Of a stretch of 64,000 nucleotides of DNA, positions 32,459-33,362 are shown piece after piece. Source of the stretch: Eledone cirrhosa (Eukaryota); the NCBI GenBank assembly GCA_964016885.1, contig OZ024751.1, positions 24,180,001 through 24,244,000 of the forward strand, written 5' to 3'. The translations under genes were made by a program, and so were the position numbers. Under the pieces are notes generated by a model. It did not search any database and was not told where the DNA came from. It was given only the letters and a program-made list of their open reading frames with translations. Numbering within the stretch: the first letter of the stretch is position 1; every line of letters starts with the position of its first letter.

Positions 32459-33362
32459 ACATTATGAAGAGAGAAGAAACATTTAGATATAATTAGTAAT
32501 AAAATGTATCATACCTAAACTGCTCCTAAATTTAGGAGCAGTTTAGGTATGATACATTTTATTACTAATTATATCTAAATGTTTCTTCTCTCTTCATAAT
32601 GTATTTTTAACTCTGATACTGGTTCAGTCTGGTTCAAACTGAATTGGTCTGTCCCGGTCATTCATTGAGCAACATCGGTGAAGTTGGCACCCTTAACTCA
32701 CAGTTGGGTGCGGATGCATTCATGTATATATGTGTGTGTCCGCATGTATCTGTGTGTTTCTAAATATATTAATAACTCCCTCTGGTCGAGCAATCTTTGA
32801 AGTGTGGGGACAACTGGAAAGCTTCCATTACTCATGCTTCTCGCCTTCTTCACTACCTCTTCTACGGCCTCGATATGAATACCCCCTCCGCCTCCGTGGT
32901 ATTTTCTTCGTGGTTATAAGAGGCTTAGCTCTGTTTCTCGACCGTTATATCGCGTGACTATCTCCCCCTCCGCCTTTTGGGATTCTTTCTCACGTCGTGT
33001 AGACGCGTTCTTGAGACTAGTAAAATGAGGTATCCTCTTGATAAGTTGGCAGACCTCGCAAGGACTCTATATCTTTGATATATTGTTTTTGTTTATGCCA
33101 CGAAACTACGTAGTCGAGGAATTTAGGAGCAGTTTAGGTATGATACATTTTATTACTAATTATATCTAAATGTTTCTTCTCTCTTCATAATGTATTTTTA
33201 ACTCTGATACTGGTTCAGTCTGGTTCAAACTGAATTGGTCTGTCCCGGTCATTCATTGAGCAACATCGGTGAAGTTGGCACCCTTAACTCACAGTTGGGT
33301 GCGGATGCATTCATGTATATATGTGTGTGTCCGCATGTATCTGTGTGTTTCTAAATATATTA
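32459..33362 (+). mobile_element. Second locus of the 591-bp retrozyme-like element (~1.4 units) with ~70-bp inverted 5' arm
   Basis: Period 591 (atttaggag at 32530 and 33121). 32459-32530 folds back on 32531-32602. About 4 substitutions per unit versus the 4.7-kb locus. Bounded by (TA)n. Confidence 0.85.
33033..33120 (+). ncRNA. Type-I hammerhead ribozyme, predicted cleavage after 33115
   Basis: Same sequence as 4893-4980. Confidence 0.85.

Follow-up and report, generated by a model that had tools for sequence, protein, structure and literature searches.

The two copies of a 591-nt repeat in this stretch of the Eledone cirrhosa genome start at different phases of the unit, carry a short inverted arm and are embedded in TA microsatellites, which raises the question of how they were inserted and from what kind of RNA they were copied. 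The window analysed here is the whole stretch of 64,000 nucleotides (assembly GCA_964016885.1, contig OZ024751.1, positions 24,180,001 to 24,244,000 of the forward strand), which is AT-rich animal DNA with many microsatellites. In our view, both loci are probably recent insertions of a hammerhead repeat lacking any recognisable gene, whose RNA the enzyme of a Penelope-like element (PLE), acting in trans, copied into TA microsatellites. This explanation starts from four observations: the layout of the insertions, the ribozyme motif, the recurrence of two 3' junctions and the young age of the copies. The partner enzyme acting in trans is something we infer because no autonomous Penelope ORF was found within the window. 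A frame of 101 aa at 33516-33818 that looks like a PLE C-terminus was rejected as a candidate, having neither Pfam nor homologue support.

The unit has a GC content of 42 % and occurs at only these two loci within the window. Positions inside it are given as phases, that is, as unit positions in the numbering of locus 1, by which the forward start of locus 2 at 32529 corresponds to phase 4980. Both loci follow a common plan, in which a (TA)n tract is followed by a short inverted arm, by 1.4 to 1.6 tandem units and by another (TA)n tract (Table 1), and (TA)n stands at all four element junctions. Target-site duplications are unreadable inside these tracts at both loci. The 1-kb flanks of the two loci have no sequence in common, and the copies differ at five phase positions. 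The preliminary description of this DNA had reported the same unit in a different phase at the second locus, a forward copy lacking exactly GAGG after the predicted cut, and a fold-back into an inverted arm of about 70 bp. All of this is right, the arm being 76 nt long and meeting its neighbour at AATT. This junction sequence is self-complementary, and the two arms form a perfect palindrome of 148 nt (fold z -26.9). At locus 1, the arms overlap by 3 nt (TAC), and the register of the inverted arm is 91 nt away from that of the forward start. The longest stop-to-stop frames within the unit comprise 83-86 aa and have no meaningful Pfam match, and no reverse transcriptase (RT) or GIY-YIG ORF was found in the 591 nt.

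Table 1. Features of the two insertions and of related elements in the window. Positions are those of the window; X1 and X4 are public sequencing runs.
Feature	Positions	Strand	Details
Left (TA)n flank, locus 1	4665..4707	.	
Inverted arm, locus 1	4700..4725	-	26 nt, phase 5222 to 5197
Forward arm, locus 1	4723..5651	+	929 nt, 1.57 units, last phase 5060 near end-point 1
Type I hammerhead motif, locus 1, first copy	4893..4980	+	predicted cut 4975/4976
Predicted long hairpin	4976..5046	+	starts at the cut, ends 9 nt before end-point 1
Predicted long hairpin	5145..5208	+	ends about 12 nt before end-point 2
A-to-G site, locus 1	5151	+	G; A in locus 2 and X1/X4
A-to-G site, locus 1	5285	+	G; A in locus 2 and X1/X4
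Hammerhead motif, locus 1, second copy	5484..5571	+	predicted cut 5566/5567
A-to-G site, locus 1, second repeat only	5582	+	G, phase 4991; A in four other instances
Right (TA)n flank, locus 1	5650..5945	.	
Left (TA)n-rich flank, locus 2	32212..32459	.	
Inverted arm, locus 2	32457..32532	-	76 nt, end-point 1 (phase 5055) back to 4980
AATT common to both arms, locus 2	32529..32532	.	head-to-head junction, 4 nt past predicted cut
Forward arm, locus 2	32529..33362	+	834 nt, 1.41 units, phase 4980 to end-point 2 (5222)
A-to-G site, locus 2	32656	+	G, phase 5107, again at 33247 (second repeat); A in locus 1 and X1/X4
A-to-G site, locus 2	32836	+	G, phase 5287; A in locus 1 and X1/X4
Type I hammerhead motif, locus 2	33033..33120	+	U3-A8, predicted cut 33115/33116, read through
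Right (TA)n flank, locus 2	33355..33504	.	
Six further type I hammerhead motifs, three families	6824-6872, 17630-17684, 17796-17850, 33543-33587, 44208-44250, 45067-45114		
Family B arms	17117-17263, 44937-44994, 45607-45664, 48293-48429, 55063-55345, 57026-57242		

A descriptor scan of the window was used to locate hammerheads, and locus 1 carries two consecutive complete motifs. The core shows the U3-A8 covariation, G10.1-C11.1, GAAA and GUC. Helix I has 5 bp, helix II has a bulge at its start, and helix III is a perfect palindrome of 10 nt (4965-4974). With a conserved core and three helices, the motif has what defines a type I hammerhead, as far as prediction goes. U3-A8 is known as a natural hammerhead covariation (Perreault 2011, PMC3088659; Cervera 2014, PMC4209133), and the latter work reports a short helix I, a bulged helix II, U3-A8 and a palindromic helix III for PLE hammerheads. 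The self-duplex of helix III is calculated at -12.9 kcal/mol, and the palindrome would suit cleavage of the predicted ribozyme as a dimer. The hammerhead fold has -20.7 kcal/mol compared with -22.3 kcal/mol for the free optimum, which means that the active fold costs 1.6 kcal/mol. The unit as a whole folds far better than its shuffles (z -6.1). The predicted hairpin that begins at the cut competes for the 3' strand of helix I and may keep many RNAs uncleaved. Rfam gave no match over the window at the gathering score, and by E-value it gave seven weak matches on locus 1, with no ribozyme or hammerhead among them.

Independent evidence for the ends of the element was sought in public data. Part of the unit is contained in 20 public sequencing runs, with no RNA run listed among them. 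Four runs were examined, namely X1 and X4 from these 20 and two raw Hi-C runs. In X1, 1376 contigs matched the unit, 686 of them being at least 99 % alike, and the summed depth reached 1-6 x 10^5, which is a sum over overlapping contigs and not a copy number. From these values the 591-nt family appears abundant and young in X1, and the earlier reading of an RNA-derived, young family is supported. Tandem junctions of the unit are also present in this run. Among the six loose ends listed of 68 in all, three join (TA)n behind phases 5054, 5055 and 5220 (2, 7 and 5 contigs, respectively), and another has a TA run before 5220. A fifth is a fold-back centred at 4995/4996, 20 nt past the cut, in which the loose part reads as the reverse complement of 4997-5010. 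The sixth, at 4936, resembles an internal variant. The summed depth, again no measure of copy number, drops to 0.53 past end-point 1 and to 0.36 past end-point 2. The two end-points, at phases of about 5055 and 5220, are thus supported by X1 contigs, and their recurrence next to (TA)n, as proposed from the two loci, is seen again in an independent run. A rise in X1 depth of 2.35-fold was also observed at phase 5300-5320, which is pyrimidine-rich; the forward start of locus 1 corresponds to phase 5314. This rise possibly marks the commonest 5' boundary of the family or a transcription start.

The end-points are 165 nt apart and are used at opposite ends in the two loci. End-point 1 lies 80 nt past the predicted cut, and each end-point sits directly 3' of a predicted long hairpin. 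The preliminary description held that the two loci use the same end-points reciprocally. This stands for phase 5222, which is identical in both loci, while locus 1 ends at 5060, 5 nt beyond 5055. With two end-points and four junctions, such a reciprocal pattern arises by chance in one of eight cases, so reciprocity alone is weak evidence for the model. The further proposal, priming at TA-like microhomologies, does not hold if TA-likeness is taken as the only cause of the end-points, since no listed junction falls at phase 5182, where the unit is most TA-like, and phase 5055 lies outside the eight most TA-like sites. Both loci, which are 28 kb apart, join at phase 5222 (positions 4700 and 33362), and X1 joins at 5220. 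Both also have T at the equivalent positions 4907, 5498 and 33047, a minority allele with about 6 % of the depth in X1. Judging from the shared minority T and the shared junction, loci 1 and 2 may have had one donor.

The remaining public data concern the distribution of the unit. X4 holds one self-closing contig of 621 nt (591 + 30) with a depth of 7.8, and the two raw Hi-C runs, with 1938 million letters each, contain 0 and 3 partial reads of the unit. The unit was found under 17 organism labels among the 20 runs, and its presence in X4 and the Hi-C runs appears to be at trace level. Horizontal transfer was not inferred from the 17 labels, as the examined runs other than X1 look like traces. 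A trace in X4 is as expected from contamination or diet, with a high-copy repeat assembling first. Pattern scans gave no match in viral contigs or GTDB genomes, and all 15 loci found in metagenomes were chance matches of 18-20 nt.

The closest known counterparts are the insertions of endonuclease-bearing (EN+) PLEs. These contain partial tandems, an adjacent inverted and 5'-truncated copy, a tail at one end only and (TA)n targets (Craig 2021, PMC8557442), and palindromes at head-to-head junctions (Arkhipova 2013, PMC3846280). Both loci share with them the partial tandem next to an inverted 5'-truncated copy, the palindrome or microhomology at the junction, the (TA)n targets and a hammerhead near the 3' end, and the longer end-point at one end only may be a further likeness. 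Unlike EN+ PLEs, the unit lacks an RT or GIY-YIG ORF and measures 591 nt in its entirety, and its end-points are 165 nt apart compared with the 30-40 nt described for the tail. According to Frangieh 2024 (PMC11167929), a PLE protein cuts either strand of AT-rich DNA and extends it, with two internal starts of reverse transcription that lie 85-92 nt beyond the hammerhead cut and close by. The present family would resemble this element, Poseidon of Anolis (PAc), in having two internal starts, the first about 80-90 nt past the cut, in the cutting and extension of both strands at AT-rich targets and in a mainly uncleaved RNA template, and differs from it in that PAc is autonomous.

With non-LTR retrozymes, the unit shares the non-coding tandem, one type I hammerhead per repeat, the GC content and the strong structure. 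A non-coding tandem of this kind, with hammerhead motifs in consecutive repeats at locus 1, would be classed as a retrozyme in the two accounts cited next. The length exceeds the 170-400 nt of the retrozymes in Cervera 2020 (PMC7229834) and lies within the range of 51-972 bp given by Li, Clavereau and Pollet (bioRxiv 10.64898/2026.07.22.740005), both of which propose mobilisation of retrozymes by PLEs. Unlike in retrozymes, the hammerhead is of the PLE type, and the consulted parts of these two accounts describe no inverted arms, fixed end-points or microsatellite targeting. The element is probably a young, non-autonomous, retrozyme-like element of Penelope type, and this kind of element is already known. 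Likewise, the idea of two end-points and two-sided priming put forward in the preliminary description is largely right and has already been described for PLEs, to which that description drew no link. An annotation of Octopus vulgaris lists 31 recently active Penelope-like families (PMC13282606). In a literature search over the main text of mostly non-subscription articles, no published account of the family or of edits fixed in retro-copies was found, and the family may already stand in a repeat library.

In mechanistic terms, the template would be an RNA longer than one unit, either a linear multimer or a circle. The endonuclease of the element would nick both strands of a (TA)n tract, and each nick would prime cDNA internally at one of the two preferred sites at phases of about 5055 and 5220. 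The 165 nt between these hairpin-adjacent end-points could correspond to the Penelope tail. The cDNAs from the two nicks, or a single cDNA together with its fold-back copy, would then be joined head to head via 2-4 nt of microhomology. Most cDNAs would run past the hammerhead, and the stop of locus 2, 4 nt past the cut, could represent either run-off at a self-cleaved RNA end or ordinary truncation.

Whether the inverted arms require a second priming event depends mainly on locus 1. In LINE-1 twin priming, an inverted 5' piece is joined by microhomology, and locus 1 fits this scheme with a deletion of 91 nt. Unlike in LINE-1 insertions, there is no poly(A), the inverted piece of locus 2 duplicates the forward arm and the end-points are fixed by the element. 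Alternatively, the arms could stem from fold-back self-priming of a single cDNA that was closed by TA microhomology, with no second target-primed event. The perfect palindrome of locus 2 and the loops of 0-25 nt in other fold-backs of the window agree with this, and such palindromes have been read as self-priming (Arkhipova 2013, PMC3846280). Nevertheless, self-priming alone is unlikely, because the inverted arm of locus 1 is out of register with the forward start and hence no fold-back of its neighbour, arms of two different families seem to meet head to head at 44937-45157, and end-point 1 matches TA poorly. The arm of locus 1 thus supports the earlier claim of priming from both sides of the target. 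Misassembly of the two loci, or of the palindrome, is very improbable. It could be suspected from the 100 % identity of the arms of locus 2 and from the location of both ends within microsatellites, but fixed differences and unrelated flanks set the loci apart, X1 has the same end-points, a tandem junction and a fold-back, and the arms of other fold-backs in the window have diverged (81-96 %).

The form of the template is less clear. The preliminary description proposed a self-cleaved or circular RNA, and the circle is not established: the repeats of locus 1 differ at one site, and a linear multimer would account for the permutation just as well. On any tandem RNA, different phases would result if the 3' ends are fixed and the 5' truncation varies, and no circle is therefore needed. 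A covalently closed circular RNA of 591 nt copied by rolling-circle reverse transcription, as in the non-LTR retrozyme model, is somewhat less likely than not. Cervera 2020 (PMC7229834) put forward such a template. A circle would account for copies longer than one unit in different phases, for hammerheads that were read through, for the strong fold of the unit and for the G that both locus 2 repeats carry at phase 5107. However, a donor locus whose two repeats already had this variant accounts for locus 2 as well, while the difference at phase 4991 between the repeats of locus 1 would need a later change if one circle had served as template. The contig of X4 that closes on itself fits a circle, but is also expected from any collapsed tandem repeat.

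Within the preferred explanation of a PLE-driven insertion, and not as an alternative to it, the ribozyme cut could define the 5' end of the RNA. By this sub-hypothesis, the cDNAs of locus 2 ran off a cleaved RNA, were trimmed to AATT and annealed, which we regard as slightly short of an even call. The junction lies 4 nt from the cut, which has a chance of 0.8 % for a single uniform breakpoint and of 2.5-3.3 % for three to four breakpoints. Moreover, AATT is the first palindrome of at least 4 nt that is intact on the cleaved RNA, as TCGA at 4976 spans the cut, and both arms of locus 2 stop at the same phase. The fold-back listed in X1 is also close to the cut, but uses TA alone, one of 26 such centres in the interval. 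The chance rises to 5-12 % if fold-backs are confined to 160-300 nt from an end-point, and all of this concerns a single event. Further points against a general role of the cut come from the other copies. Arms cross a predicted cut ten times in the window (three times in the 591-nt family and in seven of seven cases in three other hammerhead families), no tail copy starting at a cut was found in these three families of the window, and at 17592-17888 the centre of the fold-back lies some 110 nt upstream of its own predicted cut. In X1, the depth ratio at 4980 is 1.13 and thus inside the noise of adjacent bins (0.85-1.27), compared with the 2.35-fold rise at 5300, and none of the six listed loose ends of 68 falls at 4976-4982. 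For the lizard PLE, Frangieh 2024 (PMC11167929) found no reads or copies ending at the cut, whereas one copy here starts 4 nt past it; in the same work, the cut is not needed in vitro and uncleaved RNA is the main template. The claim that the second copy starts at the ribozyme cleavage site is therefore not established, given one junction, ten arm passages across cuts and no depth step in X1. The position of the start of locus 2 beside the predicted cut is possibly due to chance, and its link to the cut is suggestive only. X1 may still be compatible with a minority class of cut-defined ends, since only six of 68 loose ends are listed and contigs collapse identical junctions.

The differences between the copies have a strong bias of their own. 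On the RNA (ribozyme) strand, each of the five differences among the copies in the window is an A-to-G change. At each site, the other locus and X1/X4 have A, and the G is therefore derived. Allowing for any substitution class, a result of five out of five has a probability of about 1 in 10,000. As a control, 12 SINE copies of the window were examined, in which A-to-G accounted for 4 of 67 singletons in one orientation and for 6 of 66 in the other (6-9 %); the corresponding counts for family B were 0 of 12 and 0 of 16. A paired state is predicted for all five A's (0.70-1.0 compared with a background of 0.51-0.56, p 0.03-0.06). Four of the five follow C (background 24 of 130), which gives CpG, and none follows G. 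A-to-I editing occurs widely among animals, reaches an extreme in cephalopods and is the best-fitting strand-specific process for these differences. ADAR prefers U or A 5' of the edited A, and C-preceded sites are atypical. On balance, we lean towards A-to-I edits of the template RNA that were fixed by reverse transcription. CpG decay of an ancestral G, sub-family alleles or an error bias of the reverse transcriptase would be less expected but deserve consideration, as the G allele reads CpG at four of five sites, only five differences are available and the organism of X1 is possibly not the species of the window. Against this, X1 has A at 100 % of the depth at 5151 and at 102114 of 102137 at 5285, and lists no variant of at least 2 % at 4991, 5107 or 5287. 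Decay would need about nine parallel losses, all on one strand, compared with five gains.

If these two threads are taken together, the copies could be a fossil record of the life of the RNA, with some copies starting at the hammerhead cut and A-to-I edits entering the germ line at each Penelope-driven round. This is a speculative and rather unlikely reading. If true, it would prove in vivo that RNA cleaved by the ribozyme is used as template, and ADAR editing would be a heritable mutator of a mobile element. For the PLE hammerhead, the cut is dispensable in vitro and cut ends were not seen in a lizard (PMC11167929). In the literature as consulted, the proposed mobiliser of animal retrozymes is based on co-occurrence and on the relatedness of sequences, and the anatomy of insertions plays no part in the argument (PMC7229834 and the bioRxiv preprint). 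The 591-nt family shows a Penelope integration signature on a retrozyme-like unit. Since the family appears abundant and about 99 % identical, it could serve as a test bed for cut-defined 5' ends, for circle versus multimer and for RNA edits in DNA, all three of which a breakpoint plot and a strand-resolved variant spectrum would test directly.

The fold-back pattern is not restricted to the two loci. At least five other fold-backs occur, at 138-286, 17592-17888, 26414-26632, 37102-37348 and 55063-55345, of which 17592-17888 bears one hammerhead motif on each arm. Three other hammerhead families end 38-53 nt past their predicted cuts, and each of their motifs lies 38-53 nt upstream of a TA run. 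This insertion pattern is routine in this genome. A further family, termed B (Table 1), appears to carry only the 3' half of a hammerhead (GAAA, a 6-bp helix III and GUC). All eight of its arms found by one anchor have nearly the same 5' boundary, and this fixed end falls inside the ribozyme-like sequence. The family uses two TA end-points separated by 80 nt, and 57026-57242 has one of them at either end. At 44937-45157, a family B arm stands head to head with an arm of another hammerhead family between two (TA)n tracts, and this arrangement suggests two different RNAs in one insertion. By eye, 44660-44700 holds a minimal hammerhead-like motif inside which a short stretch is duplicated, and the repeat that holds it is also present at 29529-29683 and 37445-37526.

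Traces of other mobile elements occur as well. A broken frame at 20612-21420 resembles a mariner transposase, with only a weak helix-turn-helix match in Pfam. Another broken frame, at 62867-63226, resembles the restriction-like endonuclease of a non-LTR element; Pfam gave nothing for it. A SINE of 236 nt, presumably akin to octopus SINEs, is dispersed through the window, with a tandem of 2.8 copies at 18624-19291 and an inverted pair at 51830-52208.
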